DNA of 62,362 bases, the filler included. It is 3 parts of 3 records of this genome, joined end to end, with 100 filler letters (N's around TTAATTAATTAA, not from the genome) between each part and the next. Parts side by side here need not be neighbours in the genome. Positions count along the whole stretch, not along the records: positions 31,826 to 52,925 come from DRR723986_3071; 2 more parts are not named here. One strand, 5' to 3'. A program made the position numbers and the translations under genes. The notes beneath the pieces are model-generated. The model saw only the letters and a list, made by a program, of their open reading frames with translations, was not told where the DNA came from and ran no database searches. Numbering within the stretch: position 1 is the first letter of the stretch; each line of letters begins with the position of its first letter. Shown here piece after piece: positions 36,571-61,710 of the stretch.

Positions 36571-36601
36571 ATTTCCGCGAGGCTCGACACTCTCGCCCGT
36601 A

Positions 36602-37069
36602 TCAATCCTTCGTTGCCTCGTTGAATGTAGTTCTTAGTTTTTCGACGCGTTTGCGGTTTGCGCCTAGATCGGAATAACCAATACGTGAGGCTGAGCGGAC
36701 GTGGATCAGTGAGTCCTCTGCGTCCAGGAGAAATTCGACATCGTCGACGTAGCGCATGATTGCCGTTCGAAACTCGAAATGCATGTAGCCCTCTTGCTCG
36801 GTTACCAACGTCGTTCTCGGGTACTGGTTAACGATCTCCTTCAACTTTTCCCAGGCCGATTCCGCGTCTGAATCGAATCGCAGCGGATCGATGGCGTGAT
36901 CGCCGGCACCTTGGGACGAGACGCAATTTGGTTTTTCAGGGCATTCGGCCAGCTTGCCGTCGGTGACACCGAGTGCCGCGGATGGTTTCGACATGGAATT
37001 CATTGCCAATATTCCTATGTAAGCGAGTGCAAGAATCGCGACTGGAATCAGGATGCGTTTGGTTTTCAT
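36602..37069 (-). CDS. DUF1499 domain-containing protein
   Basis: CPEKPNCVSSQ, YVDDVEF and RSASRIGYSDLGANRKR. Confidence 0.9.
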   Translation of the reverse strand: MKTKRILIPVAILALAYIGILAMNSMSKPSAALGVTDGKLAECPEKPNCVSSQGAGDHAIDPLRFDSDAESAWEKLKEIVNQYPRTTLVTEQEGYMHFEFRTAIMRYVDDVEFLLDAEDSLIHVRSASRIGYSDLGANRKRVEKLRTTFNEATKD

Positions 37070-37627
37070 TTATCCATCAACTGTGTGTTTGAAATCCACG
37101 TGTCTTCGAAATCAAAGTGTCTGGGCTGCTGTTAATCGGTCGGTTCGTAGCGGCTCGTTCGACTGTGACGAAAGCGAGAACGTAAGGCGATTCCGGCAAC
37201 CCAAACAAGCATCAGGGTAATTCTCGACCACCTTGCGTCTCGCTGCCCGACAGAACCGACAGCTTCATCTGCATCTTGTTGAGGTCGCCGCGACCTAACC
37301 CACTCTTTCGACCGCAGTAACTGGCCGAAATAACCAGCAAAGCCAGTAGAAGCCGCAGACTTCTTTCGCTTAACGAACTCGGCAAGGCAAACCTGTTGCA
37401 AATGACTGCAACTCATCAGCTCACTATTGATGTTGAAATCTTTGTAACTAGCTTGACTTTACACGGTCGTGTTTTCGCTCGGTAGACGCATTAGCCCAAT
37501 CAATTGGGGGGTGCTGGCGAGGTTCATTGGCCAGTAGAAGTGCACTCACGGGCGTGCTTCCAACTTTGGGTAGTTGTTTTCTTCTTCGCTGAATCATCAG
37601 AAAGCCCCAACTGGACAACACGATTCG

Positions 37628-39076
37628 ATGAGTTCCCAAGACTTGATGCACGGTGAAGTCGCATTGCACCCTGCACAACTAGATACACAAACTGAATACG
37701 TTGCCGGTGCCAGAGCCAAAGCGTTCTCGTATCAGCCTACGATCAGTGACGCGTCACGACGAGTCCTGAACCGACTCTGCTTCGGTGCACATGATGTTAT
37801 TGTGTTTACCGCCGCATCCACTTTGATCAACTTCGCCTATCCGCTGTTTACGGGAGTTGAAATGGCGGTGTTGGCTATTGTGTTGTTGGTCAGCAACAGT
37901 ATCGTCGGCTTGCATTCCGGGGCTGCCTGGAACTCAACCGAAGAGGTGCGACTGGGCACCATTGTCACTTCCATCTTGCTATTCTCGTTCGCCGTTTCGA
38001 AACTCGCAGCGGTAGCCGAGGTTGGAGTGTTCGTTGCACTTGCCGCTCTTTGGGCTAGTGTGCTCCTTCTGCTACCGATTGGACGAGCCGTTTTGCGGAG
38101 CCTTCTAAGTCGAACAAAGTGGTGGCCAGCCCCGGCGATCGTTTTCGGCGATGGAGAACTGGCACTCAACGTCTTTCGGAGACTGAAATCCAAACCAAGT
38201 CTGGGCCTTACACCTGTTTGCATCTTTGAAGAGGCCAAACGGGACAGTATTGAGGCTCTGATTCGCTCAAGCAAGGTTAGTTGGTTTGTGTTCGCCGCTG
38301 AAGAGCATCGCGATGAAGTGCGCGAGCTGGCCTCTTTTGTCTCCAAACGTGTGCCCAACACGCTGGTCGTTCAAGATGCATTGACTCTGCCCACGCAGCG
38401 AGCAAGCGTTTTCGACACCGTTGGAATTTCTGCCATCCAGTACAAAGGCATCTTGGCGTCGAAGTGGTTGCTGGTCGCTAAACGAGCCCTAGATTTCACC
38501 GTGGCACTTGGTGTGACGATTGCATTGCTGCCGCTGTTCTTGCTGCTTGCCCTTATCGTGCGAATGACGTCAAAGGGGCCGATCTTCTACGGTCAAGAAA
38601 GAATCGGAAAGCACGGACGTGTGTTCAAAGCATGGAAGTTTAGGACGATGGTTCCGAACGCCGAGCAAGTATTGAAGAAGTACTTAGCCGAAAACGAAGA
38701 CATGCGTCGAGAGTGGGAAGCGGATCACAAACTCAAGAATGACCCGCGAGTCACTTGGATCGGCTCCTTCCTGAGAAAGACGAGCTTGGATGAGTTGCCG
38801 CAGATCTGGAACGTTCTCGTGGGCGAAATGAGCCTAGTCGGGCCACGTCCAATTGTTCAAGCTGAGACGGAAAAATACGGGCGATCTTTGGACCTATACT
38901 TGCGTGTTACGCCTGGCGTTACTGGGCTCTGGCAAGTGTCGGGACGCAACAACACCACATACGATCAACGCGTTGAGCTCGATAGCTACTACGTACGAAA
39001 CTGGTCCTTTTTGCTTGATATCTGCATCTTGGTTGTCACCGTTCGAGTCGTTTTGCTCCGTGAAGGTGCTTACTAA
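37628..39076 (+). CDS. wbaP: Undecaprenyl-phosphate sugar phosphotransferase (WbaP-like priming enzyme)
   Basis: [53 protein letters not shown] and LLREGAY; N-terminal TM domain. Confidence 0.88.
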
Positions 39077-39131
39077 GTCAGTCACGCCTTGCATCCGCTT
39101 CGACATTGGACAAAGGAACTAATCCGCTTCG

Positions 39132-40715
39132 ATGAGCAGCCTTACGGATTCTCAGATCAGCTCGTTCGATAATGACAGCGGTGTGTCGAGTGCCATCCCC
39201 TGCGCACAAGTAGAGCAGCCGGGCGAGCAGTCACAGGAGCAGCAGGACACTACATCGCACGCTCAGCAGAACGCTGGCCTCGCACCTGAAGGCAATGTTG
39301 CCACTGGTCGTCGACTTGCATCGGAAGCAGTCTGGGTCGTGGGTGGCCGGATCCTTGGCATCGCTACTGCGATTGGCATCAACGTTCTGTTGGCTCGCAT
39401 CCTGCCCCCGGACGAAGTCGGCGTATTCTTCCTGCTGGCGACGATTCTGACCTTCGCCGCGATCGTAGCAATGTTTGGACTCAACGCAGCCCTCGTCCGC
39501 TTCGTTTCCGAACAGCTTGGCGTCGGCAGTCTCGAGGAAGCGGATCGCACTCTAAAGCTAGGCGCTGGAGTTGCCACTGTTGCGATTCTTTCCGGTGGAG
39601 TTGCATGTGCGGCCTTCCTAATGCTGCTCGGAGGACCACTCTTTGGTCTATCCAACACAATGACACTTGGCCCCATCGTCGGTTTGGGAGTCGTAGCATC
39701 GGCGATACTACAACTGTGCGGTAGCCTATTGCGCTCCTTCCACGATTCGCGTCTGTCGATCATGCTAACCGGGCAATTCGGCGGCCCTATGTGCAACCTC
39801 CTGTTTATCTTTTCCGCAGTATTGTTGCACGCCCTGTTCCAACCTTCGATCGTCGTCGTGATGATCCTGAGCAGCACGAGCATGCTGATCATCGTCCCGC
39901 TGGCGCTGGTTGCAGTTTACCGAATTAGTCGACGTCGACTCGATCAGCTCTCGCGTGAAAAGTCCCTCGCAGTCGCCCAGCAAATGGACACGCAAGAGTC
40001 TGTTGTCCATAGTCTTCCACTTTCGATGCTACTGGCTGTGTCGTTCCCTCTGGTGTTGACGCAGGCGTTGTCCTACGTCACTGGCCAGGCGGATGTGTGG
40101 ATCGCCGGCGCGACAATCGAGCATGCGGACCTAGCACTCTACGGTGCCGCTCGACGTCTGATGCTGCTGATTGGGATGCCAATGCAGTTGGTAAACCTTA
40201 CCGTGGTGGCATCCATCGCCGAGCTGCGTGCTCAAGGGCGGCTGCCCGAACTTGAGAAGATACTGCGTTCCGCCGCGACGATGGCTGCTATACCCGCCGT
40301 TTTGGTTTGGCTTCCGCTTGCGATCTTTCCTGAGCAGATTCTCGGCCTGTTGTTTGGCGAGTTCTACAGTCAGTCTGCAACGATTCTAAGGATTCTGTGT
40401 ATCGGCCAAATCGTCTTCGTCGCCGTCGGCGCTGCGGAGTTGACATTGATGATGTCTGGCAATCAACGGTCCGCGCTGATGGTGAACTGCTTTACCGCCG
40501 TACTGCTGCTGTTTAGCGGCTATTTCCTGACCCTACGATTTGGTCCGGTGGGGTTAGCAATTGCGTGGTCTTTGGTTGTTTCTTTGCAGTGCGTGCTGTT
40601 CAGTCTCATGGCACGGAAAATGATTCGCGTATGGACTGTTTGCGATTTTCGGCTGCTGCTGAAATTTCCGGAATTGCTGGCCACGGCGAAAACGAAGCTT
40701 GGGAAAACTGGATAG
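39132..40715 (+). CDS. wzx: Wzx-type oligosaccharide flippase
   Basis: LARIL.P..VG, FGL..ALVRF, ALYGAA.R and multi-TM PST/MOP architecture. Confidence 0.85.
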   Translation: MSSLTDSQISSFDNDSGVSSAIPCAQVEQPGEQSQEQQDTTSHAQQNAGLAPEGNVATGRRLASEAVWVVGGRILGIATAIGINVLLARILPPDEVGVFFLLATILTFAAIVAMFGLNAALVRFVSEQLGVGSLEEADRTLKLGAGVATVAILSGGVACAAFLMLLGGPLFGLSNTMTLGPIVGLGVVASAILQLCGSLLRSFHDSRLSIMLTGQFGGPMCNLLFIFSAVLLHALFQPSIVVVMILSSTSMLIIVPLALVAVYRISRRRLDQLSREKSLAVAQQMDTQESVVHSLPLSMLLAVSFPLVLTQALSYVTGQADVWIAGATIEHADLALYGAARRLMLLIGMPMQLVNLTVVASIAELRAQGRLPELEKILRSAATMAAIPAVLVWLPLAIFPEQILGLLFGEFYSQSATILRILCIGQIVFVAVGAAELTLMMSGNQRSALMVNCFTAVLLLFSGYFLTLRFGPVGLAIAWSLVVSLQCVLFSLMARKMIRVWTVCDFRLLLKFPELLATAKTKLGKTG

Positions 40716-40873
40716 CCAATCGCGTCCAGAGAGAGCTTCTGAGCATTCTGACTAGACTGAGAGTTGTCGATTACGACACGCATTTGGCGAGAAGCCGATT
40801 TCGGCGGCCGCGATTTGTCGCCGGCATAAACTCGCCCAGTCACCACGCAACTGATTCGGAAGTATCAACGTCA

Positions 40874-42148
40874 ATGGCATCGGTTGGCACCAACATTGAA
40901 AGCAGCAGCTCAGGCTGGATCTCACGACTGGCGACAGTTGTGTGGCAACCGAGTGCTGTCTTCTGGCCATTCGTTATCATTGGCTTCTTTCTTTGGCTGA
41001 GTCCTTCTACTCAGGGAGCGGCGGGTTACAACGTCCGTGAGCACCTGAGTTTCGCGAGCCTCGCGATTCTATCAGCATGGTACGGAACGATTGCTCTGAG
41101 TGCATTTGCGGGACAGTTCCTTGCCCGAAGTCTCCCTAAGCTCGGTGTGATGAACAAAGAGCGACTTCGGTCCGCCGATTTCTATCTTATCTTGTCAGGG
41201 ATCGCCGCCGTGGGAGTCGCCTTGGCTTGGCTTGCCGCGATCCGAGGCGGCGTGTCCATTGTCGAGCTGATTAAGACTCAGCAGTTCAACCTCGTCAAAG
41301 AGGCTCTTTACGCCAATTACAACCACTTGTACTCACTGCGTTATACCGCCTCTCTCGCCGGCGGATACGCGATCTACCGGATTGTTTTTCTTCGACAGAT
41401 GAGTTGGCTAGACATATTCAATCTAGTCCTGCTGGTTGCTGCCGCTGCAATCTCGGCGCGAATCCTACTCGTTCAAGCGGTTGTGTTCGGTGGTGGCGTC
41501 GCGGTCCGTTTCAACGCTTTCTCGCAGTTGACCACTCGGGTCATGTTGTGTGCCGGCATTGGGCTGTCAATCTGCTTGGTCGGATTTACATGGGTAAGAA
41601 GTGCGGGCAGCTATCGAGACTACTTCGGCGTTGAAAGCCCAATTGCGATCACTTATCTCGAAGTCCAACGGTACCTTGGTGCCCCGGTTCAAGCCAGCGT
41701 TGGTGTCGCTCGTATCGCTGCCGAAAAGCCCCAGCGCGGGACAAGCCGGAATCTAGTTAAGTACTTGACGCCTACTTTCCTGCACCCCGCATCGCAGAAA
41801 GTCTCGGACAATTCCGGTGGTGTTGGTGAACAGTGGTATCTGGATCAAATCGACGTCGATGAAACACTCACTACCAACTCAGCTTGGGTCGAGATGTACG
41901 GCGACCTCGGGTTCTTGGCGTTTCCCGTCATTGCCTGGGTCAGCTTTTGCATGGCGACCGTTGGGACGTACTTTTGGCGAAGTGACAATTTGCTCTGCCT
42001 GGTTGGGTGCATCGTTCTGTACGGCTTCTTCGAACTCTGGCGTACGTACTACTTTGCCGCTGGATCGTTCACATTCCTAATTCTTGCAGTATGTGCATCC
42101 GCTGTCGGCGGCACTCTGATTGGAACGCGAAGGAGTCCTCAATGGTAG
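40874..42148 (+). CDS. wzy: Putative Wzy repeat-unit polymerase
   Basis: About 10 TM segments with a large loop ending TTNSAWVEMYGDLGF; lies between the flippase and the GTs; ATG at 40874 preferred. Confidence 0.65.
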   Translation: MASVGTNIESSSSGWISRLATVVWQPSAVFWPFVIIGFFLWLSPSTQGAAGYNVREHLSFASLAILSAWYGTIALSAFAGQFLARSLPKLGVMNKERLRSADFYLILSGIAAVGVALAWLAAIRGGVSIVELIKTQQFNLVKEALYANYNHLYSLRYTASLAGGYAIYRIVFLRQMSWLDIFNLVLLVAAAAISARILLVQAVVFGGGVAVRFNAFSQLTTRVMLCAGIGLSICLVGFTWVRSAGSYRDYFGVESPIAITYLEVQRYLGAPVQASVGVARIAAEKPQRGTSRNLVKYLTPTFLHPASQKVSDNSGGVGEQWYLDQIDVDETLTTNSAWVEMYGDLGFLAFPVIAWVSFCMATVGTYFWRSDNLLCLVGCIVLYGFFELWRTYYFAAGSFTFLILAVCASAVGGTLIGTRRSPQW

Positions 42149-43200
42149 ATCAGCAAGTGCTATTCGATGGCCGCTGGGTTGGCCAGCACGGAATCGGTCG
42201 ATTCGCTTCCGAATTGCAGTCTCGATTGTCTGGCGTTCGATCGCAAGCGTTCGGCGGTAGCCCGACCAGTCCACTGGATGCATTGCGCCTCGGTGTAAAG
42301 CTATGGCGAAGCCCAGTTGGCTACTTCTCTCCCGGCTTCAACGCACCTCTGGCTCTGCCGCTGTCGAAGCAAAAGTTCGTTTTCTCCATCCACGACTTGA
42401 TCCATGTACATCACCATGGAGAGGCTTCGATCGCAAAGCGGCTTTACTATTCAACTGTGGTCCGCGCTGCCGCCCGACGCGCATTCGCCGTCTTGACCGT
42501 TTCGGAGTTTTCGAAGGCGGAGATCGTAGAGTGGTCGGGCGTTTCGCCTGATCGTGTGAAAGTTGTTTACAACGGCGTTGGCAGTGCTTTTAAGCGTGAG
42601 GGCGCAAATCACAAATTGTCGCGGCCATACCTACTGTATGTCGGTAATCAGAAACCGCACAAAAACGTCCCTGCACTGATCGAAGCCCTAACGCTGCTTC
42701 GCAAACAGCACGACATCGATCTGTTGCTCTCCGGCCAGGCAAGTGCCGAGACTCAGTCTCTGGTAAACCAACATGCTCTGCAGAATCACGTGCATTTCCT
42801 TGGCTCTGTCGATGACGAGCAACTGGCTGCAGCCTACCGCGGAGCGACTGCCACGGTGATGCCATCCGAGTACGAGGGCTTCGGCTTGCCGCTCGTTGAG
42901 TCTATGGCTTGCGGCACGCCCGTTGTCTCAAGCAATGTTACGTCTCTGCCCGAAGTTGCCGGAGACGCGGCCGAACTCGTTGAACCGAAGTCTCAATCAA
43001 TTGCCGCTGGTGTTGAACGCATCCTGTCCGAGCCAGGCCGACGAGAACAACTCATTCAAGCGGGCCTGAAAAGAGCTAGCCAGTTCTCGTGGACACGCAC
43101 TGCGGCACTTGTCCAAGAGGTGCTCGACGATCTTCAAGCAACCACCGATCAGAACGTCGCCCCACGTTCGGGAAACACAACAGAAGGAGCCAACCAATGA
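42142..43200 (+). CDS. GT4 glycosyltransferase (WbaW-like putative mannosyltransferase)
   Basis: [15 protein letters not shown]-terminus, [15 protein letters not shown] and EGFGLP.VESMACG; AAGGAG RBS. Confidence 0.9.
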
Positions 43201-44387
43201 ATCGAGTTGCCGTGATTCACGAATGGTTAACGACTTACGCAGGCTCTGAGCGGGTGGTCGAGCAGATGCTTGAGATGTTCCCCGACAGTGATCTGTACTG
43301 TGTTGCGGACTTCCTTTCTGGCGACGATCGACGTTTCTTGAAAGGGAAGACTCCGACAACAAGCTACGTACAGAAGCTGCCATTTGCCAAGCGATTCCTG
43401 CGGCATTACCTCCCATTCATGCCTGCGGCAGTCGAGCAGTGGGATCTGGCCGATGCCGACATCGTCCTCTCATCCAACCACGCCGTTGCGAAGGGAGTGA
43501 TCACGGGCCCAGATCAATTGCACGTCAGTTACGTTCACACACCGATTCGATACGCCTGGGATTTCCAAGCTCAATACCTGCGGGAGTCCAATCTCTCGTG
43601 GGGTGTTCGAAGTATGTTGATTCGCGGAATATTCCATTACATCCGAGCTTGGGACCAGTCATCGGCCAATCGTGTCGACCACTTCGTTGCCAATAGCAAC
43701 TTTATCGCCCGGCGGATTGAGAAGTGTTACCGCAGAACCGCCGATGTCGTATACCCGCCGGTTGATATCGAAGCGTTCCCAGCACACTACGACAAATCAG
43801 ACTACTACATAGCAGCCTCGCGATTGGTTCCCTACAAGCGAGTGGACCTGATCGTCGAAGCCTTTCGAAAGATGCCAGACAAGAAACTGGTCGTCGTCGG
43901 TGACGGCCCCATGTACAAAAAACTCGCCAGCGAGTGTCCCGCCAACGTAGAACTGCTTGGCTATCGTCCGCACGCTGAACTAGTGAACCTGATGCAGAAG
44001 GCAAAAGCGTTTGTCTTCGCTGCGGAAGAGGATTTTGGCATCATGCCAGTTGAAGCCCAGGCATGTGCAACACCAGTCATCGCGTTTGGACGCGGTGGCA
44101 GTCTCGAAACTGTTCAGGAAGGAGCGACCGGCTACTTCTTCCGTGAACAATCACCTGAATCATTGGCAGAAGCTGTCGAGCAGTTCGAGGGGCCGTCCAA
44201 CCGATTGGATCTCGGGTACATACGCCAGCGATCGGAATACTTCCGGCCGGAACGCTTCCGAGACGAACTTTCGCAGGTCATCGAAAGAGCGTGGGACGCC
44301 TTTGGTCGCCCGAAAGCTCAGGACACAGAATCAAATCACGCATCAGACAACTCATTAAACGAATCCCCAAGGCCCGTTGCCGTCTAG
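43197..44387 (+). CDS. GT4 glycosyltransferase (WbaZ-like putative mannosyltransferase)
   Basis: HEWL...GSERV, YVHTPIRYAWD, SRLVPYKR and EEDFGIMPVEAQAC; ATGA overlap with the previous gene. Confidence 0.92.
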   Translation: MNRVAVIHEWLTTYAGSERVVEQMLEMFPDSDLYCVADFLSGDDRRFLKGKTPTTSYVQKLPFAKRFLRHYLPFMPAAVEQWDLADADIVLSSNHAVAKGVITGPDQLHVSYVHTPIRYAWDFQAQYLRESNLSWGVRSMLIRGIFHYIRAWDQSSANRVDHFVANSNFIARRIEKCYRRTADVVYPPVDIEAFPAHYDKSDYYIAASRLVPYKRVDLIVEAFRKMPDKKLVVVGDGPMYKKLASECPANVELLGYRPHAELVNLMQKAKAFVFAAEEDFGIMPVEAQACATPVIAFGRGGSLETVQEGATGYFFREQSPESLAEAVEQFEGPSNRLDLGYIRQRSEYFRPERFRDELSQVIERAWDAFGRPKAQDTESNHASDNSLNESPRPVAV

Positions 44388-44443
44388 CCAGTGGCCAGCC
44401 ACCCCGCCGTAGACCACTGTTAGCGATAATTGAAAGTAGAAAA

Positions 44444-45997
44444 ATGAGTCACCTTCCACATTCCCATGAAGGCCTAGACCTCATCGCAGCCTGCTTCAAC
44501 CACAAGAAAAAGATGGTTGCTCTGGCCTGCCTGATCATGGGGCTAACTATTGCCTATACTTTCGTTGCCAAGCACAAGTACACTTCCGAGGCGCAGCTAT
44601 TTGTTCGCCTTGGCAAGGAGACCGTGGGCCTCGATCCGACCGCAACGACCGGCAAGACAATCAGTGTTCAAGAGTCGCGTGAAAAGGAAATCTACTCCGT
44701 ACAAACATTGATGCGTAGCCGAAACGTTCTTGAACAAGTCGTTGATTCGGTTGGCGTTGACAAGATTCTTGAGACGGCGGAGTCGTCCGAAGAAGAATCA
44801 AGTCTGCCAATCGACCTAGGTTTTGTTAAGACCCTCAATCCGCTGTATGTCGACAGTCCACGAGACAAGGCGATCGAATCGCTAGGCAAGGGGCTGGAGA
44901 TCTTCACACCGCGAAACACTGCCATCGTCGGCCTGCGATACGAGACAAACAGCCCTGAATTGGCTGCTGAGGTACTTGAAAATGTGATAGCGTCGACAAT
45001 CACCGAACACGTTCGTGTGCACCAGTCGACAGGCTCAAGCTCTTTCTTTATCGCACAGTCGACTCAATTGAAGGAGCAAGTCGACGCACTTCAACGGGAG
45101 TTGCTCGAGTTCAAGAATGAGACCGGAGTAGCTGATCTAACGAAACAACGCGAGCTTCAAATTGCACGCATTGCCCAACTTGAAAACTCCCGCCTCGCAG
45201 CACTCTCAGAACTCGAGGGCGTACGCAGCGAAATCGATTCTCGACGCGAGATTCTTGCGTCGCAGCCCAACGAAGTCCAATTGCAGGCGACGACAGGGTT
45301 GGCCAGCAGTGCAGCCGAAGGCATGCGTGAGCAACTCTTCACGCTCCAGATTCGCGAAAAGGAGCTGCTGACACGATACGAGCCAAGCCATCCGCGGGTG
45401 ATTCAAATCAAGGAACAGATTGCGGCTGCACAAGCTACAGCCAAAGGCGAAGATGCTTTGACGCAGCGAACCGTCGGCCTTAACCAGAACCGGCAATCGA
45501 TGGAATCAGCCCTGATGAATCAACTTGCCATTGCCTCCTCCCTGGAAGCCCGCAAGAAGGTACTCAGCGAGCAGATTGAAGAAGCCAAGGCGGAGCTAAC
45601 CGGAATCAACCAGAACGAGATTCGACTTTCCGAGTTGAATCGCAAGCTGGAATTGGCAAACTCCACGTACCTTGACTACGCTCGCCGCAGTGAACAAGCC
45701 CGGATCGACGCGGCCCTGGGCGACGAAAATCTATCCAACCTCAGCATTCTCCAGCCACCAAGTCTGTCCAAAATTCCGAGCAGCCCCAAGCTGAGTCTCA
45801 TACTGTTTGCTGGATTCACTCTGGCAATCTTTTCAAGCATGCTGATGGCGATTGCGTTTCAGTTGCGTGACCATCGTGTTCAGTCGCCCACCCACCTGGA
45901 ACGACTCGATACACCGTATCTTGGCGAAGTTTCTCATCTTCCGAAGAAGCGAATTCTGGCGAGCGAAGAGTCAGAAGAAACGGCTGACGTGGGATGA
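44444..45997 (+). CDS. Polysaccharide co-polymerase (GumC/Wzc N-terminal, PCP-2 type)
   Basis: N-terminal TM plus YTSEA, long coiled coil, Y.P.HP.V and a Pro-rich motif before the C-terminal TM. Confidence 0.88.
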   Translation: MSHLPHSHEGLDLIAACFNHKKKMVALACLIMGLTIAYTFVAKHKYTSEAQLFVRLGKETVGLDPTATTGKTISVQESREKEIYSVQTLMRSRNVLEQVVDSVGVDKILETAESSEEESSLPIDLGFVKTLNPLYVDSPRDKAIESLGKGLEIFTPRNTAIVGLRYETNSPELAAEVLENVIASTITEHVRVHQSTGSSSFFIAQSTQLKEQVDALQRELLEFKNETGVADLTKQRELQIARIAQLENSRLAALSELEGVRSEIDSRREILASQPNEVQLQATTGLASSAAEGMREQLFTLQIREKELLTRYEPSHPRVIQIKEQIAAAQATAKGEDALTQRTVGLNQNRQSMESALMNQLAIASSLEARKKVLSEQIEEAKAELTGINQNEIRLSELNRKLELANSTYLDYARRSEQARIDAALGDENLSNLSILQPPSLSKIPSSPKLSLILFAGFTLAIFSSMLMAIAFQLRDHRVQSPTHLERLDTPYLGEVSHLPKKRILASEESEETADVG

Positions 45998-46668
45998 TAG
46001 TTGGCGAACAACATTTACAACTTGCCGCGCCCAAAGCGGTGCACCCTCTGCTTTACCAGTACGTGCCCATTCTCGAATCAGCGGCGCGACGCGCTGAAGT
46101 CGTTTCCTCTCGAACAGGAAATGCATTTCGGCTTGGCGTTACCAGCATGGAGACGGGAACGGGTGTGAGCACGCTTGCGGCGAACCTTGCCTTGGCAGCG
46201 GTTAAGATCGTCCGAAGAGGCACAACACTGGTCGAAGCGAACTTGCTGCGTACTTCGATGATGGATAGCTTTGACGCGGAGTTTGACGGTAAAGCTGAGT
46301 GCCCGGGCTTCGGTGATGCAGTCCTTGGACTTTGTGAGGCAGAAGAAGTCATACATCCGTCATTAACCGCAGGACTCTCCCTGGTTCCTGGCGGGAATGC
46401 CAAGACCGCAAGGCAGTTGTCCGAAGCGACTGACGTAGCCTTGGAGACCACGCTTTCAAAAATACAAAGTGATGAAAACTGGCTCGTCGTTGACCTGCCA
46501 CCCAGTTCCGGACCGTTCACTCAGGCAGTCGCAGCCTGTCTGGACGGCGTGATTCTGCTTGTCTACGGAAACCACACCTCGCGCGTCCGTCTAAACCAAG
46601 TGGTCGGGGGCTACGCAAAGCTGGGGATCCCTGTGCTAGGAACCGTGTACCGGCACATGTCCCCATAA
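45994..46668 (+). CDS. CpsD/CapB-like BY-kinase domain protein with degenerate Walker A
   Basis: VTS...GTGVSTLAANLA, LVEANL, VVDLPP, DGVILLV and LGTV; overlaps the co-polymerase stop. Confidence 0.8.
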   Translation: MIVGEQHLQLAAPKAVHPLLYQYVPILESAARRAEVVSSRTGNAFRLGVTSMETGTGVSTLAANLALAAVKIVRRGTTLVEANLLRTSMMDSFDAEFDGKAECPGFGDAVLGLCEAEEVIHPSLTAGLSLVPGGNAKTARQLSEATDVALETTLSKIQSDENWLVVDLPPSSGPFTQAVAACLDGVILLVYGNHTSRVRLNQVVGGYAKLGIPVLGTVYRHMSP

Positions 46669-46674
46669 CAGCTT

Positions 46675-49600
46675 TTGTCATCGCAACTACGCTTCAGTCG
46701 ATCCAATTGTCCAAAACACCGTCGCCCAGCCGTGTCGAATTCACCAGAAACTCGATTTGATCTTCTGCAACACCGATCACCTCGATCTTCCGAGGAGAGC
46801 TGTGGTGAGGGGATCGTACCGGCTCTGCCGCCCCGCGAAAGCCCCGTGCAGTCGCATCAGACGGAACCAAAGCCTGGAACGATTACGGATTTCGATTGGA
46901 GCGATGATCCTTCACTCGCTTGCTTGGTCACAAGTACTGCCCGCCGCCTACCGAACAATATTGCCATCCGATGCGGCGGTACCGCGCTATCTTATGAAGA
47001 ACTCGATAGGCGTTCCAGCGCGATTGCCCACGAGCTGCTTCGACTAGGCGTGCAAGTAGGCGAAGTAGTCTGCATCGTTGCTGATCATACCGCCGAGTCG
47101 ATTATCGCAATCGTCGGTGTCTTGAAGGCAGGAGCGGCCTATCTGCCACTCGATGTGCAACTGCCACCCGAACGTTTGTCGTACTTTGTTGAAAAGGCGG
47201 ACGCCCGATTCGCAGTCGGAAACGCCCTACCAGCCGGACTCGATGGCTCTTTAAAATTGGTCCGTCCGCAGAATGTAGAAGTTGCACCTGAGTCATCAGA
47301 TGGAAGCCGCGGGCAACTTCCCGCTCCAGACGCCGAGAGACTGGCCTATGTTCTCTTTACGTCGGGCTCTACCGGAAAACCCAAGGGCGTAATACTCAAC
47401 CATCGTGGACCGGTCAACACAATCCGCGATATCAATAATCGATTCGCAGTCTGCAGCGACGACAAAACACTCTGTCTATCGGCACTGGGATTTGATCTCT
47501 CGGTTTACGATTTGTTCGGAATGTTCGCGGTTGGAGGAACGGTTGTCCTGCCGACACGGAAGCAGAGTCGCAATCCGTCTGAATGGTTGCAGCTAGTCCA
47601 AGAGCACGGCATCACAGTTTGGAATACTGTCCCCGCCCTGATGGATATTCTCGTAACGGCGACCAGCGATGAGAAGGCGCTGGACTCACTCGAGACAATT
47701 ATGCTTAGCGGTGATTGGATTCCACTCACTCTTCCGGATCGAATTCGCAAGTTGGTACCGAGAGCGAAGATTTGGTCTCTCGGTGGCAGCACCGAAGCCT
47801 CGATTTGGAGCGTCTTCTACGAGATTGAAGAGGTCGCGGAACATTGGACCAGTATTCCGTACGGCCGGTCGCTTCTCAATCAACGCTGCTATGTTCTAAA
47901 CCAGAAAATGGAGCAGTGCGAGGTCGGAGAGCCTGGCGAGTTATGCATTGCCGGAGTCGGCGTTGCATTAGGTTACATCAACGACGGCGAACGAACCGAC
48001 CAGCAGTTTGTTGCCGATCCATTTGATTCTAGGGACAACGCGAGCAAATTCTACGGTTCCGGTCTCTTGTACAAGACCGGGGATCTCTGTCGCTATGACG
48101 CAGACGGAGTGCTCGAGTTCCTTGGCCGTATGGACAGACAGGTCAAGATCAATGGACACAGAGTTGGTTTGGGCGAGATCGAGAGTGAACTCGTTAAGCA
48201 GACTGGCGTTGTAGATGCGATCGCAAAAGTCGTCACCTCAGATGCAGGCCAACGTCTAGTAGCCTATATCCGCGTGTCCGACGAAACGAACTCGCCCGAT
48301 CAAGCAGCCATTCTCGCCGAACTCAAGTTGCACCTGCCCAGCTACATGGTCCCCTCGCAGATCGTGTCGCTCACCCAATGGCCGCTGTCACCGAACGGGA
48401 AGATTGACTACGCGAAGTTGCCATCGACGACGGACGAATCGCTTGAAATCACTTCGGACCAAAACGATGCGGCGGAGCAACACGAAGGCACCGAGCGTTG
48501 GCTTTCCGACACGCTATCGGAACTCCTGCGAGTGCCCTCGGTTCCCCTGGATCAGTCATTCTATTCCTCGGGCGGCACGTCCTTGACCGCGCTCACGCTA
48601 ATGGCTCGCACCCGACAGGCGTTTGGCGTCGTATTGGATTACAAGACAATCCTCGACCGCGATCAGCCCCTTCGATCACTGGCTGCTGCAATCGATGAAG
48701 CTGTTGACAGCCTGCCGCCTGAAAGCGCCCGAACACTGGAGTTGGCATTCGCCCCTGGCAATTCTCAAACTGCACCGCTGTCCTACCAGCAGCGGCAAAT
48801 GTGGATCGTCAACGAGATCGAAAGCAATCGGACTCGCTACAACGTCCCACTTGCTTACGAAATCGCAGGGGACGTTGATCAAGCCGCACTGGCAAAAGCA
48901 CTCAACACTATTGTGGACCGTCACCATGTCCTGAGGACCGTGATCGATTCTGCCACAGAATCCGAGCATGACTCTACGGACCAACTCACTCAGCGAGTCA
49001 TCGATCGAGACTCAGACGTATTGAAGATCACACGGCTTTCTTCATCCAACGACGAGCCGCTGGAGAAGCATCCCGAGGTGCAAAGCTTCGTACGAAGTCC
49101 TTTCGACCTTAGCACTGAGGCACCATTTCGCGCAAGCCTATTCACGGGCACAACAAGCAGTTTACTCGTCTGCGTCTTTCATCACATCGCCGTTGACGGG
49201 CAATCAGTGGGCATCCTGAACCGGGAACTCGAGGCGCTTTACGCGTCCGAATGCGGTCTTATTCAGCCTGCGGAAATGCCGGAATTGGTTCAGTACGCCG
49301 ACTACGCGCGTGCGCAGCAATCCAACTCCGACGCAAGGCCGCAGAGTCGCGAGCGCAATCGAGAGTTCTGGTCACAGGAACTGGCTTCACCGCCACCGCC
49401 GGTGTCCTTACCAAGTGACTTCACTAAAGGCTCTGCGGCGTCGAATCAGCCCGAGGGCGAAACTGTCCGCTTTACACTGCGCGGCGAAACCGTGCATCGC
49501 TTGCGTGAATTTGCTGTCGAGAAGCAGACCACTGCTTTCGCAGTCCTACTGAGCTCGCTAAAGGTGCTGCTTAGCAGGTATTCGGGGCAAGAGGATCTAA

Positions 49601-52600
49601 TCGTCGGAACAACCGTATCCACGCGAGATCTGATGGAGATTGAGCGCACAATTGGCTACTTCATTGGCGTCCTCCCCATCCGCAGTGAGATCACGCCAGA
49701 ATCGCAATTTGCGTCGATCTGTGAGCAAGTTCACCAGCGGACGATCTCGGCGCTTTCCCACAAGGACTTTCCGCTGGAGGAAATGCAAGCGAACCTTGCC
49801 AGTGAAGGATCGCCGCAAGAACTATTCAACGTCTTGTTCGTACTTGAAGACGATCAACCGGCCCCTCAACTTGGCGATGCGGTTGTCACCGAGCGAAAGC
49901 TTCACACAGGAACTGCCAAGTTTGACCTGTTGGTGTCTGCGATCGACGCCTCTACGGAAATCAACGTTGAGTTGGAGTACAACGCTCGGAAGTACTCGCG
50001 CGACCGAATCGAACAGTTCGCTCGGCATTTCGAAATTGCCGTTGAACAATGCCTTGACCAACCCTGCAGCCGGGTTGCAGAGCTCCCTATCGCGGACAAC
50101 CATAGTGTTTTGGGACGACCTCTGACGGATGAGCAGCCCGGTAGCACTGAGCTTGACCAGCCATCTGGATCCATCATGGCTGCAATCCAGACGCAGTGCG
50201 AAACGAATCATGGTGCCGTCGCAGTTCATTTCGCCGAAGCTCAGTACACTTACGCGGAACTAAACCGTGCTTCAACAATCATTGCGTCGCGAATGACGGA
50301 GCAAGGTGTTGCCGCGGGCGATCTCGTTGGAATCCACGTCAGCCGGTCTCCACAGATGATCGCGTCTGTTCTTGGCGTGTTGCGATGTGGTGCCGTCTGC
50401 GTGCCGGTCGACCCAATCCTGCCGCAACAGCGAAAAACGGAGATCATCCAAGCAGCCCGGCCGAAGCTGATCTTGACCGACCAGCAAGAACAATCCGCGA
50501 GTATGAACTTCGTCCAAGCGCTGGACAAACTTGCGATTGTCGACGTATCGGATTCCTTCAACGATCGGGCCAGTGAAACAACCCAAGGTTACTATTCGCA
50601 CGACACGAGCGAGCTGATCTACGTGCTCTTCACGTCAGGTTCGACAGGCGAACCCAAGGGCGTCAAGATGCCGTTTGGTGTTATCAACAACCTAATCCAC
50701 TGGCAACTCAGTCAGTCGGCCTCGAGAGGTGCCAAGAGTACTTTACAGTTCGCTTCGCTGGGTTTCGATGTCGCGTTTCAGGAAATTCTGGCAACGCTTG
50801 CTTCTGGAGGAGCACTGCACGTTGTCGACCAGCCGACGCACGCAGACCTCAACTCACTTTGGGACACGCTAGTTCAGGAACGGATTGAGCGGGCGTTCCT
50901 GCCTTACGTGGCCCTGAATGGCCTATGTGAGATTGCAAAAACGCGTGGCGAAAAATGCAGCCTTCGCGAGATCGTGACGGCGGGCGAAAGATTGGTGATC
51001 ACGGATACGATTCGCCGATTCTTCGAATCACACTCCGGTTGCAAGCTGACAAATCAGTACGGACCAACAGAGTCGCATGTTGTTTCTTACTACGACTTGT
51101 CGGGCAAACCCGAGAACTGGCCCAGCAAGCCTCCTATTGGCGTTCCTGTCCAGGCCGCCGAACTTGCCGTTGTTTCGCCGGACCGAGTGGCCATGCCAAG
51201 AGGCTCCGAGGGCGAACTTTGGATCGGCGAACAATGCATTGCATCTGGCTATCTCGACGGAAACGATTCCAGCGACGCCAGATTCATCGAATCCACTCTT
51301 CCTGGGTACGACAGCAGGAAGTGGTATCGAACGGGCGATGTTTGCCGAGTCAACTGGGAAGGGCAACTTGAGTTCATTGGCCGGAACGACGACCAAATCA
51401 AAGTTCGCGGCAATCGAGTAGAGCTCGGTGAGGTCGAGGTTCAGTTGCATAAGCACACCGGTGTTCTGCACGCTGCGGTTCTTGCCAACAGCAGCTCTCA
51501 TGCAACCAGCTTGGTCGCGTTCGTCGAGCCTACGGATGCACCGCTTGAACCTGCCAGTATGCAGGCGCTCGTCCACGACCTGAAGGATGCGTTGACAAGC
51601 AAACTGCCAGATTACATGGTGCCCTCCACGATCTACATTCGTGATCAACTGCCCAAATCGGTCAACGGCAAAGTGGACCGTCAACAACTGCGATTAGAAC
51701 TCGCGAAGCTGGCCGAGGACCACGGTGCGAGAAGAGACCGTCAATCAGAACAAGCGGTAGTCGACGATCCGTTTAGCAAGTCGGTAGCCAGTATTTGGGA
51801 ATCGGTCCTCCGTTGCCCGGTCGATTTGAACAGCAACTTCTTCGATTGTGGCGGCAATTCGCTGGCTGCTGCGATCATGTTTGCACGACTGCGAACAACT
51901 CTCGGTGTCAAGGTCTCGATGTCGATATTGGTGGCCAACCCAACACTTCAGCAATTCACTGCGACTCTGACGCAAGACGTTGCATCAAAAAATGAGGTTC
52001 GCGGAGTTGTCGTCTTGGGAGAATCGGCTGAACGTAGTGTCAGCACGGCGGATCCGGTCTACTGTTTGCCAGGGATCGACGGTCACTTCCTCAACTTTCG
52101 CGCCCTCGCGCGACGGCTCAGCGAGGAACGAAACGTCTTTGGGCTCGAACCCATCGGTTTGTTCGATCTTGGCAAATCTAAGTTGAGCTTTGAAGAATTA
52201 GCGGCTGAACAGATACGAGCTCTTCGCCAGCAACAGCACACCAGCATCTATCATCTTGTCGGTTTCTCCTTCGGAGGCGTCTTGGCTTACGAGATGGCTC
52301 AGCAGCTCTGGCGAGCCGGCCACAGGGCTACACTTTGCATGATCGACGCTACTCCAGGAGTACCTGTTCCGTCATCGACGCTGCAGAGCTTTGGATTCCA
52401 CGCGCGGCTGCTTTCGACACTACCTTGGGGCCAGTGGCCGACGTACTTGAATCAACGGCTCAAGGCAGGATATCTTTCGATTCTCCACCGCGCCGGAGCG
52501 ATCAGCCTTGACGACAAGATTCGACGAGTGATTGATTTGGATGAATCGTATGGACGTGTTGCGGCCGCGAATATGGTCGCGTTAGAAGACTATCGCCCAC

Positions 52601-52878
52601 AACCATCGCTTGGACCAGCGACGTTATTCCGTGCGCGTATTCGCGCCAAAGGCGGTAGCGGCGGCGACCCAACGGCGGGTTGGCAACCATACTTCCAAGA
52701 GCAGGACCTTCGCCTTTACGAGGTTCCCGGCGCTCACACAAACATGCTCGCCGAAGACCAAGTCAGCCAACTCTCCCACCACATCCAACGCCTCCTCAAC
52801 ACGCCCCCTCAACACGCCTCCGCGCTAGAGCCCTCCGGCAAGAACCTGTCTTCCAAAAGTTCGTGGTCCCGCCTTTAG
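46675..52878 (+). CDS. Two-module nonribosomal peptide synthetase, A-T-C-A-T-TE
   Basis: A1 (FTSGSTGKPKG, YKTGD, NGKID), T1 (GGTSL), C (HHIAVDG), A2 (FTSGSTGEPKG, YGPTE, YRTGD, NGKVD), T2 (GGNSL), TE (GFSFGG, GAHTNML). Start uncertain: TTG 46675 or GTG 46732. Confidence 0.95.
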   Translation: MSSQLRFSRSNCPKHRRPAVSNSPETRFDLLQHRSPRSSEESCGEGIVPALPPRESPVQSHQTEPKPGTITDFDWSDDPSLACLVTSTARRLPNNIAIRCGGTALSYEELDRRSSAIAHELLRLGVQVGEVVCIVADHTAESIIAIVGVLKAGAAYLPLDVQLPPERLSYFVEKADARFAVGNALPAGLDGSLKLVRPQNVEVAPESSDGSRGQLPAPDAERLAYVLFTSGSTGKPKGVILNHRGPVNTIRDINNRFAVCSDDKTLCLSALGFDLSVYDLFGMFAVGGTVVLPTRKQSRNPSEWLQLVQEHGITVWNTVPALMDILVTATSDEKALDSLETIMLSGDWIPLTLPDRIRKLVPRAKIWSLGGSTEASIWSVFYEIEEVAEHWTSIPYGRSLLNQRCYVLNQKMEQCEVGEPGELCIAGVGVALGYINDGERTDQQFVADPFDSRDNASKFYGSGLLYKTGDLCRYDADGVLEFLGRMDRQVKINGHRVGLGEIESELVKQTGVVDAIAKVVTSDAGQRLVAYIRVSDETNSPDQAAILAELKLHLPSYMVPSQIVSLTQWPLSPNGKIDYAKLPSTTDESLEITSDQNDAAEQHEGTERWLSDTLSELLRVPSVPLDQSFYSSGGTSLTALTLMARTRQAFGVVLDYKTILDRDQPLRSLAAAIDEAVDSLPPESARTLELAFAPGNSQTAPLSYQQRQMWIVNEIESNRTRYNVPLAYEIAGDVDQAALAKALNTIVDRHHVLRTVIDSATESEHDSTDQLTQRVIDRDSDVLKITRLSSSNDEPLEKHPEVQSFVRSPFDLSTEAPFRASLFTGTTSSLLVCVFHHIAVDGQSVGILNRELEALYASECGLIQPAEMPELVQYADYARAQQSNSDARPQSRERNREFWSQELASPPPPVSLPSDFTKGSAASNQPEGETVRFTLRGETVHRLREFAVEKQTTAFAVLLSSLKVLLSRYSGQEDLIVGTTVSTRDLMEIERTIGYFIGVLPIRSEITPESQFASICEQVHQRTISALSHKDFPLEEMQANLASEGSPQELFNVLFVLEDDQPAPQLGDAVVTERKLHTGTAKFDLLVSAIDASTEINVELEYNARKYSRDRIEQFARHFEIAVEQCLDQPCSRVAELPIADNHSVLGRPLTDEQPGSTELDQPSGSIMAAIQTQCETNHGAVAVHFAEAQYTYAELNRASTIIASRMTEQGVAAGDLVGIHVSRSPQMIASVLGVLRCGAVCVPVDPILPQQRKTEIIQAARPKLILTDQQEQSASMNFVQALDKLAIVDVSDSFNDRASETTQGYYSHDTSELIYVLFTSGSTGEPKGVKMPFGVINNLIHWQLSQSASRGAKSTLQFASLGFDVAFQEILATLASGGALHVVDQPTHADLNSLWDTLVQERIERAFLPYVALNGLCEIAKTRGEKCSLREIVTAGERLVITDTIRRFFESHSGCKLTNQYGPTESHVVSYYDLSGKPENWPSKPPIGVPVQAAELAVVSPDRVAMPRGSEGELWIGEQCIASGYLDGNDSSDARFIESTLPGYDSRKWYRTGDVCRVNWEGQLEFIGRNDDQIKVRGNRVELGEVEVQLHKHTGVLHAAVLANSSSHATSLVAFVEPTDAPLEPASMQALVHDLKDALTSKLPDYMVPSTIYIRDQLPKSVNGKVDRQQLRLELAKLAEDHGARRDRQSEQAVVDDPFSKSVASIWESVLRCPVDLNSNFFDCGGNSLAAAIMFARLRTTLGVKVSMSILVANPTLQQFTATLTQDVASKNEVRGVVVLGESAERSVSTADPVYCLPGIDGHFLNFRALARRLSEERNVFGLEPIGLFDLGKSKLSFEELAAEQIRALRQQQHTSIYHLVGFSFGGVLAYEMAQQLWRAGHRATLCMIDATPGVPVPSSTLQSFGFHARLLSTLPWGQWPTYLNQRLKAGYLSILHRAGAISLDDKIRRVIDLDESYGRVAAANMVALEDYRPQPSLGPATLFRARIRAKGGSGGDPTAGWQPYFQEQDLRLYEVPGAHTNMLAEDQVSQLSHHIQRLLNTPPQHASALEPSGKNLSSKSSWSRL

Positions 52879-52923
52879 ACGGAATATTACTGCTATCTAG
52901 TTCGTAGTACCGCCTTTAGGCGG
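52859..52923 (+). repeat. Two tandem GTAG-family REP copies at the contig end
   Basis: GTTC-GTGGTCCCGCCTTTAGACGG (degenerate) and GTTC-GTAGTACCGCCTTTAGGCGG; same family as 32960-33077. Confidence 0.78.
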
Positions 52924-52925
52924 AA

Positions 52926-53025
52926 NNNNNNNNNNNNNNNNNNNNNNNNNNNNNNNNNNNNNNNNNNNNTTAATTAATTAANNNNNNNNNNNNNNNNNNN
53001 NNNNNNNNNNNNNNNNNNNNNNNNN
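52926..53025. other. Artificial contig spacer
   Basis: N44-TTAATTAATTAA-N44. Confidence 0.99.
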
Positions 53026-53026
53026 G

Positions 53027-53158
53027 TCCTGCGCCGGTATCGACCCGAACGAACGTGTGGTCGATGGCCTGATGGCTTTCGTGGCCAACGGGGTGCGGAC
53101 CTCTGTCGCCCTGTCGCGCGAGGAAAGCGAACGCCGGAACCAGGCCGAAGCGGCCTGA
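53027..53158 (+). CDS. C-terminal fragment of an unidentified protein
   Basis: Open frame SCAGIDPNERVVDGLMAFVANGVRTSVALSREESERRNQAEAA* with GC3-rich codons, followed by a terminator. Confidence 0.4.
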   Translation, partial: SCAGIDPNERVVDGLMAFVANGVRTSVALSREESERRNQAEAA

Positions 53159-53179
53159 TCTGTTAAACACTGCTGCCAC

Positions 53180-53256
53180 GAAAAGGCGCGCCCCACGGGG
53201 CGCGTTTTTCGTTTCTCGCGGCAAGACAAAAAAGAGCCGCCCCGAAGGGCGGCCCG
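53180..53256. terminator. Two terminator hairpins between convergent genes
   Basis: AAAAG-GCGCGCCCC-AC-GGGGCGCG-TTTTT and AAAAAAGA-GCCGCCC-GAA-GGGCGGC. Confidence 0.75.
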
Positions 53257-53284
53257 ATATAGCATGAGGGATAGGCTCTGAGGC

Positions 53285-55561: not shown

Positions 55562-55667
55562 TGTCCCCTCCGCTCCGCCTCGGGAGAGATGTCAGGCGGA
55601 TCCCGGTTTGAAAAATGCCGCGCCCAGGGTTGGGGCGCGGCACAGGTTGTCAGGCCTTGGGCCGCGA

Positions 55668-56663: not shown

Positions 56664-56902
56664 TGTGGGTTGTCCTCCGATTCATGCCGGCCCTCTGCCG
56701 GCTTTGTCCGAATGAAGCCTCCTCTCCATCCGGGGCCCTCAAGCGGGCCGTGCGCCGCAACTAAGGGTCGCACAGGCCGACTTGATCAACCGACGCGGGT
56801 CGGGAAACACCGAGGAAAACGTAAAATCTGGAAAGGATGGGTCGATTGGGGGGCAAATGCCCGCTGCCCGTGTTCCGAAACCGACACATGGCCTGGCAGG
56901 GG

Positions 56903-60102: not shown

Positions 60103-60210
60103 GGCCCCCGAGTATGCTGTGCGGCGCAAGGATTGCCTAGAGCCCGCGTCATCGTGGTTTTCATTCTTGCGGGCATGGATCATGCTGCCGTGAACGAGGG
60201 AGATAAAGCA

Positions 60211-61644: not shown

Positions 61645-61710
61645 GCCTCTTGTGGGGTGGGCCGGTTTCGCGGCATCACTTGGGGCAAATGCGTAGAAGG
61701 ATCCGCCCCC

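Follow-up and report, generated by a model that had tools for sequence, protein, structure and literature searches.

A nonribosomal peptide synthetase predicted to make Cys-Pro is a recurring, swappable part of planctomycete surface-polysaccharide cassettes

The window considered here, a stretch of DNA of 62,362 nucleotides, consists of three contigs joined by N spacers, one of which (31826–52925) carries a polysaccharide cassette that ends in a nonribosomal peptide synthetase (NRPS) with a terminal thioesterase (TE). The cassette comprises eight open reading frames (ORFs), all on the + strand, in the order wbaP, wzx, wzy, two GT4 glycosyltransferase genes, a co-polymerase gene, a kinase-like gene, and the NRPS gene (last stop codon at 52878), as the initial annotation of this DNA had listed them. 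Comparison with related genomes identifies the NRPS, predicted for Cys-Pro, as a recurring and swappable part of planctomycete surface-polysaccharide cassettes, and the probable role of the enzyme is to add an amino-acid unit with a thiol to the sugar polymer. The relatives retrieved in the Wzy and NRPS searches alike bear names from Rosistilla, Rhodopirellula, Aporhodopirellula, and strain SH139, by which the host is very likely a Pirellulaceae bacterium. The features are as follows (A, adenylation; T, carrier; and C, condensation domain; BY-kinase, bacterial tyrosine kinase).

37628..39076, + strand: WbaP-type initiating undecaprenyl-phosphate hexose-1-phosphate transferase (TIGR03022, PF02397)
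39132..40715, + strand: Wzx flippase (PF01943, 48.9 bits; 12 hydrophobic segments)
40874..42148, + strand: Wzy-like polymerase (about eight hydrophobic segments; ESM Atlas neighbours)
42142..43200, + strand: GT4 glycosyltransferase GT4a (PF00534/PF13439; start overlaps the wzy stop)
43197..44387, + strand: GT4 glycosyltransferase GT4b (PF00534)
44444..45997, + strand: polysaccharide co-polymerase without a fused kinase (PF02706 above cut-off; two hydrophobic segments)
45994..46668, + strand: BY-kinase-like protein (weak TIGR03029/TIGR01007)
46732..52878, + strand: predicted two-module NRPS, A(Cys)-T-C-A(Pro)-T-TE (2048 aa when read from GTG 46732; the frame opens at TTG 46675)
46915..48429, + strand: A1 domain, code DLYNMSLIWK, cysteine type (BmdB and PchE matches)
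48763..50094, + strand: C domain (PF00668; HHIAVDG intact)
50167..51699, + strand: A2 domain, code DVQAVAQVVK, proline type (gramicidin S synthetase 2, 8P5O)
52054..52824, + strand: type I TE (Ser1865-Asp1891-His2021, numbered from 46675; clade motif CxPGIDGH)
52926..53025, no strand: N spacer (contig end; the DNA beyond is unrelated)

The glycan genes match components of a Wzx/Wzy pathway. WbaP provides the initiating polyprenyl-phosphate sugar-1-phosphate transferase (TIGR03022 at 426 bits against a cut-off of 403; TIGR03025 also above cut-off; PF02397), Wzx (PF01943) and the two GT4 proteins (PF00534 twice) provide the flippase and glycosyltransferases, and the protein with PF02706 above cut-off provides the Wzz-type co-polymerase. 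The wzy product has no match in Pfam or NCBIfam; its ESM Atlas neighbours at 0.98–0.99 are named Wzy or O-antigen ligase (PF14296 on 12–13% of members), and these together with its hydrophobicity point to a polymerase or ligase, here termed Wzy-like. Its orthologues have starts that align with ATG 40874. GT4b shares 53.7% identity with a Klebsiella GT4 encoded upstream of gndA-manC-rfbK1, and is probably a WbaZ-like mannosyltransferase; the Man-Man-Gal assignment of the initial annotation, drawn from Salmonella C2, depends on enzyme names of this kind.

The gene described there as BY-kinase-like is present, but its product looks inactive: matches to TIGR03029/TIGR01007 are weak and far under every BY-kinase cut-off, and GTGVST (GAGVST in locus L002, the closest relative) stands where a Walker A motif with its lysine is expected. 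The protein is thus probably a BY-pseudokinase, and it has been retained in two lineages (45994–46668; L002:15120–15827) at 64% identity despite the absent lysine. Wzc-type export uses an active BY-kinase together with an OPX protein; no OPX (Wza) gene was found in the cassette, and the OPX family PF02563 is present elsewhere in the genome in all five relatives searched.

Gene overlaps at 42142/42148, 43197/43200, and 45994/45997 are present as first described, the remaining intergenic gaps among the glycan genes are 55, 158, and 56 bp, and GC content is even (52–56% in each gene). A gap of only 6 bp had been claimed between the kinase-like and NRPS genes. The NRPS frame does open at TTG 46675, but because the frame of L002 begins at an aligned GTG, the likely start is GTG 46732, which gives a gap of 63 bp; the 6-bp coupling is probably wrong. 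No terminator-like site lies within 46668–46732, in keeping with the earlier remark that no obvious terminator precedes the NRPS; in the promoter/terminator scan, terminator-like sites in the region are at chance level (14 vs. 10.4 ± 6.9 in shuffles). Contigs from three DNA runs, belonging to three studies, cover 28, 29, and 13 of the 30 bins of 36500–52925, and none of the listed contig pieces from these runs crosses the kinase–NRPS junction; no RNA run carrying the region was found among the eight runs listed. The nearest genome, G001, shares a match of just 57 bp with the region. The contig ends right after the NRPS, as noted at the outset, 47 bp past its stop codon.

The NRPS is a complete two-module enzyme, as originally proposed: its Pfam architecture is A-T-C-A-T-TE, and the catalytic motifs of a modular NRPS are intact, including HHIAVDG of the C domain, the serines of both carriers, and the TE triad (GFSFGG...D...H). 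For A1, the best solved match is BmdB, which differs at one of 10 pocket positions, and PchE is also among the top matches; because we take both to be cysteine-loading enzymes, A1 is assigned to the cysteine type, and the cysteine code on which a thiol-bearing product had been proposed holds. For A2, the best solved match is gramicidin S synthetase 2 (8P5O), a domain that we take to be proline-specific, and tyrocidine synthetase 2 is also listed. The Cys-type and Pro-type codes are kept in all 12 full-length orthologues examined (A2 codes such as DVQLIAHVVK). The C domain has tyrocidine synthetase 3 (2JGP) as its best solved match and appears, by its best matches, to be of the ordinary L-to-L type; a dehydrating or otherwise special C domain was considered and rejected, since the best matches are ordinary C domains. 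The carrier-bound product should therefore be Cys-Pro with a free amine, held on the second carrier, as predicted from these codes. No phosphopantetheinyl transferase is encoded on the contig, and PF01648 is present in all five relatives searched. A TE–glycosyltransferase fusion was found in none of the 33 proteins scanned from 150 profile matches; extra domains in these 33 are mostly second TEs, carriers, and methyltransferases, with one sulfotransferase. Lid charge in a first set of TEs had a median of +5 (25 TEs) vs. +2 (85 TEs). A membrane-binding basic lid is not a specific mark of a lipid-linked acceptor, as TEs without glycan neighbours can be basic too.

The linkage of this NRPS to glycan genes recurs among Pirellulaceae. 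Searching with Wzy gave 22 proteins, and searching with the NRPS gave at least 12 full-length orthologues at 39–41% identity among the 120 matches listed; all eight genome loci of a contig scan show the order wbaP-wzx-wzy-GT4-GT4-co-polymerase-NRPS. Across 401 Pirellulaceae genomes, the Wzy profile matched 15 (11 at E < 1e-200) and the TE matched 63 at E ≤ 1e-15 (11 at E < 1e-57), and the close Wzy and close TE matches fall in the identical 11 genomes and loci, including the eight above, about 10 kb apart and on one strand. This answers the question raised by the initial annotation of whether the NRPS–wzx/wzy linkage recurs, and NRPS homologues unlinked to glycan loci, which it had named as counting against its proposal, do not occur among the close orthologues (11 of 11 lie inside the cassette). 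No close orthologue was found outside the family in the phylum scan (401 genomes), G004 itself aside, and five of the 12 more distant TE loci read in it have glycosyltransferase or export genes as neighbours. The TE clade also has single-module members (P0147–P0149 and P0155), which were not counted as linked.

The kinase-like gene is absent from 10 of 11 related cassettes and present only in the window and L002, and wbaP is missing from the fetched cassettes L028–L030; the NRPS is retained in all of these. Downstream and flanking genes vary among lineages, with no conserved exporter or tailoring gene in the cassettes or flanks of the relatives read. In L005, L006, L007, and L038, the NRPS gene begins before the co-polymerase gene has ended, so that start and stop overlap. 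NRPS dN/dS is 0.12–0.20 in six pairs (the seventh, window vs. L002, is saturated), and the glycan genes have somewhat lower values (0.03–0.13); by these measures the NRPS is a real, conserved gene under selection. Distance matrices of the NRPS and glycan genes agree (Mantel 0.85–0.95), as kinship alone would also yield.

Other cassettes show that the NRPS is optional and exchangeable. The four distant Wzy loci (L032–L035), and also L012, keep parts of the wzy/GT4a core and lack an NRPS in the DNA fetched; what they encode instead is a sulfotransferase, an FkbM or other methyltransferase, or a GumK-like protein. Wzx matched in 44 of the 401 genomes, and its nearest homologues mark NRPS-bearing cassettes: the top 12 are the 11 cassettes plus genome G278, and none of 15 further Wzx loci read below these carries an NRPS (two are short contigs). 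The G278 locus (L038), which is also the twelfth TE match, encodes a Wzx at 47% identity, a co-polymerase at 38%, and a single-module A(Cys)-T-TE enzyme, together with a Wzy unrelated to that of the window (hhalign probability 0.2); its TE groups with that of the window (SH-aLRT 97–98), as does its Wzx (99). Next to this cassette and transcribed away from it (L038:14105–18662) are GT4, GHMP kinase, nucleotidyltransferase-phosphatase, and epimerase genes, the sugar genes being presumably of a heptose-type pathway.

In a second test, 361 genomes of the order were ranked by co-polymerase similarity (150 matched), and 32 high-ranking loci, chosen without using the NRPS as a criterion, were read. 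TE-terminated NRPSs adjoin glycan genes in six of the 32: predicted A(Cys)-T-TE enzymes in L087, L088, and L097 (the last with two carrier matches), enzymes with other substrate codes in L089 (A-T-TE) and L090 (A-T-C-T-TE), and an A(Cys)-T-C-A(Pro)-T-TE enzyme following GT4 and co-polymerase genes in L105, the TE of which belongs to a different branch and marks a second Cys-Pro line. Loci with Wzx at ≥36% identity have an NRPS in five of seven cases (the exceptions are L091, which lacks one, and L112, which stops at the co-polymerase), in contrast to none of the 16 loci with a co-polymerase-kinase-wbaP layout; the 32 also include five orphan co-polymerases, as well as L101 and L110, which are wbaP-GT4a-GT4b-co-polymerase cassettes without an NRPS. 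A matched trio, with glycan proteins 52–71% identical, encodes a Cys enzyme (L088), an enzyme with a different code (L089), or no NRPS (L091). Loci with an NRPS occupy three well-supported clades of the Wzx tree (three changes vs. 11.2 in shuffles). All trees are quick searches; the TE tree left out eight near-duplicate rows, the Wzx tree left out duplicates and matches of <300 residues, and the groups left out three short contigs.

Several observations accompany these loci. About half of a TE domain (41% identity to that of the window over 98 aa), without A or T domains, lies between the co-polymerase and wbaP genes at L093:8566–9333 (G1068) and is possibly the relic of a lost NRPS. In L088, genes for a class III aminotransferase and an acyl-CoA ligase directly follow the NRPS, and very large Calx-beta/legume-lectin/galactose-oxidase-like or DUF11/lectin proteins are encoded after the cassettes at L088:3–4169, L089:14206–19998, and L091:10875–17351.

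On this basis we favour a role for the NRPS as a decorating enzyme, the TE of which would transfer a Cys unit (Cys-Pro) to the repeat unit while this is still lipid-linked and not yet flipped by Wzx, a proposal whose chances we judge to be evenly balanced. On the cytoplasmic side of the membrane, WbaP and the two GT4 enzymes would assemble a short repeat unit on undecaprenyl pyrophosphate; the TE serine would accept Cys-Pro and hand it to a sugar of this unit rather than to water; the matching Wzx would flip the acylated unit; and Wzy with the co-polymerase would polymerize it to a surface polysaccharide bearing thiol groups. The undecaprenyl-PP-linked unit before flipping is the expected acceptor because the NRPS should be cytoplasmic, given the known Wzx/Wzy topology, and TE transfer is favoured because transferring type I TEs are known (FrsA, Sln9, and Pks13). 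The A(Cys)-T-TE relatives would add only cysteine, and the proline of the present enzyme would serve as a spacer. A gene that is optional, varies in substrate and in number of modules, stays coupled to flippase and co-polymerase, and lacks a dedicated exporter resembles in its behaviour the acetyl-, sulfo-, and methyltransferases that modify repeat units. For the family, we consider it somewhat better than an even prospect that planctomycete modular TE-terminated NRPSs are peptidyl- or aminoacyl-transferases acting on lipid-linked Wzy units, yielding cysteine-bearing (thiol, disulfide-cross-linkable) polysaccharides, in which a Cys-Pro ester may self-cleave such that the flippase pathway exports and slowly releases cyclo(Cys-Pro), and in which a change of A domain or an extra module reprograms the substituent. 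Glycan decoration had already been proposed in the initial annotation; it is supported in part, as the linkage recurs, the cysteine code holds, and the single-module and other-substrate versions favour decoration over a dedicated free dipeptide, but its 6-bp coupling is probably wrong and the kinase-like protein looks inactive.

Several points weigh against decoration. Free-amine Xaa-Pro esters are generally labile, and A-T-TE enzymes can dimerize their substrates into free products. Neither an N-capping domain nor an amino-sugar gene was found in the cassette. Fold matches to the TE model (pLDDT 67.8) are best with type I TEs at 15–22% identity to solved structures, and they include hydrolysing, cyclizing, and transferring TEs alike. 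The lid is basic in 18 of 18 glycan-adjacent TEs (+4 to +13), but a positive charge is also present in 12 of 20 other TEs. Being related to one another, the 11 close cassettes do not represent 11 independent events, and deep nodes of the quick trees are weak. NRPS dS between L028 and L030 is 0.29, vs. 1.2–2.6 for the glycan genes; thus NRPS and glycan parts are not always co-inherited (the downstream gene of this pair is also much closer than the glycan genes, which suggests exchange at the co-polymerase/NRPS boundary). The chief difficulty is one that the initial annotation had not considered, diketopiperazine formation: activated Cys-Pro C-termini close into diketopiperazines (PMC11284063), so a Cys-Pro O-ester could shed itself, which leaves room for released cyclo(Cys-Pro) and for a transient export ester. 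The single-module Cys versions argue against a diketopiperazine as the conserved purpose.

The first of these outcomes, in which a thiol peptide is set free by the NRPS, either cyclo(Cys-Pro) or Cys-Pro (of Cys-Cys type for the single-module enzymes), and is co-expressed with the polysaccharide to buffer redox state, bind metal, or signal in biofilms, is possible, although we regard it as unlikely. The assembly line is complete, with a canonical TE; an Xaa-Pro thioester favours diketopiperazine formation (PMC11284063, and in part general background); and the existence of NRPS-less cassettes indicates that the polymer can do without the enzyme. However, no exporter, regulator, or tailoring gene is conserved, and the Wzx clades follow NRPS presence. 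The conserved theme, an A domain and TE beside the co-polymerase or last glycosyltransferase with varying module number and substrate, suits a variable substituent better than a single signal.

More doubtful is export by piggy-back, by which the TE would esterify Cys-Pro to the repeat unit, Wzx would carry it, and the labile ester would cyclize outside to free cyclo(Cys-Pro) or a small glycopeptide, the glycan pathway serving as exporter. This would unite the genomic coupling with the self-cleaving chemistry of Cys-Pro esters (PMC11284063) in a cassette without an exporter, and resembles a model proposed for carenaemin (PMC8313283); however, single-module Cys enzymes are unable to make a Pro diketopiperazine, and a co-polymerase in nearly all loci suggests a long polymer product.

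An acceptor other than the sugar chain, such as some further envelope component produced or employed alongside it (a surface protein, a carrier lipid, or a lipid that anchors the polymer), seems improbable to a greater degree. The NRPS most often abuts the co-polymerase gene, and the very large lectin-domain proteins after L088, L089, and L091 could be such acceptors, but they are not conserved in the clade of the window, the NRPS has no acyl-starter domain, and the sulfotransferase and methyltransferase genes of sister cassettes point to glycan modification. Finally, a single chance insertion of an unrelated NRPS next to the cassette, with which it would since have been carried along, is very improbable and largely excluded already: the relatedness of the 11 close cassettes (the Mantel values reflecting shared ancestry), the terminal position of the NRPS, and the L028/L030 discordance would fit it, but NRPS/co-polymerase start–stop overlaps, NRPSs inside or ending cassettes at varied positions in three supported Wzx clades and several TE branches, and six of 32 co-polymerase loci where well under one is expected (a rough estimate from one to two TEs per 6 Mb genome and 20 kb windows) do not.

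If glycan decoration is correct, the cassette would offer a characterizable example of how an assembly-line NRPS acylates a Wzy-type polysaccharide by means of its TE, a step proposed for carenaemin without an assigned enzyme, and a function for some of the orphan NRPS and NRPS-like genes of planctomycete genomes. A natural thiolated polysaccharide would be predicted, with possible roles in disulfide cross-linking, metal binding, and adhesion. The loci form a natural series on related glycan backbones (Cys, Cys-Pro, another residue, and none), and as cultured strains carry the cassette (L004–L008), the prediction is directly testable. The comparative case is strong; the chemistry is predicted from sequence.

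Elsewhere in the window, a QTMAN_N-family glycosyltransferase gene (35422–36570) and a DUF1499 gene (36602–37069) lie upstream of wbaP, of which DUF1499 alone is also upstream in L002, and two further ORFs of the same contig (32263–32808 and 33275–34051) have no Pfam family. The joined contig at 1–31725 is unrelated and carries housekeeping genes (dnaK, dnaJ, grpE, recN-like, ppk, and ppx), and that at 53026–62362 is also unrelated, has higher GC content, and by eye appears to encode a TRAP transporter, a two-component system, and an amidase. Other assembly lines also occur near glycan genes. A KS-AT protein followed by T-aminotransferase-C-A-T-TE, with cysteine at the TE nucleophile (GYCLGG), is encoded at L040/L054 (G341), L044/L055 (G168), L045/L057 (G228), L046/L056 (G035), and L047 (G161). 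Three of the genomes have it next to a complete wzx/wzy cluster and a fourth has it next to a GT4 gene, with GNAT/FemAB-like genes following in two. A KS-AT-KR-DH-T-TE polyketide synthase (PKS) lies within wza-wzc-GT clusters of two planctomycetes (L082, G446; L083, G625), and related PKSs in Pirellulaceae (L039, L041–L043, and L050) come after a formyltransferase-A-luciferase-like NRPS and have no visible glycan gene nearby. Further NRPSs that end in a TE (A-T-C-A-T-TE or A-C-T-TE) at L074 (G771), L076 (G589), and L081 (G657) lie beside GT87, GT2, or nucleotide-sugar genes.

Among known systems, DltABCD, which D-alanylates teichoic acid (PMC3783018), works on a similar principle but has none of its transfer proteins in common with the cassette: in both, an A domain loads an amino acid onto a phosphopantetheine carrier for a surface polymer. 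The Dlt system differs in its stand-alone DltA and DltC with membrane DltB and outer DltD, in place of the carriers in cis, condensation step, and TE found here, and in D-Ala rather than a predicted Cys-Pro or Cys on a Wzx/Wzy glycan. Consistent with this, the A and carrier domains are fused, TIGR01734 (493 bits) falls below its cut-off of 559.85, NF003417 passes (518 vs. 476) only as two A domains summed, and no MBOAT DltB or DltD was found among the eight genes or annotated flanks. The published idea that comes nearest is that for carenaemin of Collimonas arenae Cal35, a PKS/NRPS product that depends genetically on a Wzy-type locus, and its authors propose, as an untested model, peptide attachment to a repeat-unit sugar before flipping (PMC8313283); that system makes a diffusible antifungal with a hybrid core of three residues from two separate loci and has no enzyme assigned to the attachment, unlike the single cassette here, which has a co-polymerase and, as candidate transferase, a TE in cis. 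Type I TEs that act as transferases include FrsA and Sln9 (PMC7794379) and the TE of Pks13, which transfers to trehalose before export (PMC11649247). As would be the case here, their terminal TEs hand an acyl group to a hydroxyl of another molecule (a sugar for Pks13), but the acceptors described are depsipeptides or free trehalose, none being a Wzy unit, and the donors are N-acylated residues or mycolate; because the TE of the window has only 15–22% identity to solved TEs, it is not claimed as a member of this group.

AzeB-type pyrrolizidine/azabicyclocarbamate NRPSs (bioRxiv 10.64898/2026.07.17.738954) similarly have two modules and an A(Pro)-T-TE end, but they couple an acylated Ser/Thr with Pro, carry out a dehydration, and depend on a Baeyer-Villiger monooxygenase, unlike the Cys module without starter C domain described here; no such monooxygenase was found in any fetched cassette, and the NRPS has a single C domain. 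The WcbR/RkpA type I PKSs are also carrier-protein assembly lines encoded amid capsule genes, although as polyketide/fatty-acid synthases with a different export system rather than amino-acid-loading NRPSs (PMC3908369). The Lysinibacillus ice-nucleation PKS-NRPS (PMC8857237) was set aside, as it is not a glycan system according to its accessible text. The accessible parts of PMC12992917, PMC13190842, and PMC10805854 give cluster counts and extract activities and do not mention the cassette, and a literature search weak on subscription journals and without supplements found no published description of the cassette or of TE-catalysed peptidyl transfer to a Wzy glycan. Within the literature so covered, the decoration idea is in print only as the hypothesis put forward for carenaemin. 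If the favoured reading of glycan decoration holds, the cassette would represent a variant form of the carrier-dependent aminoacylation of surface polymers.

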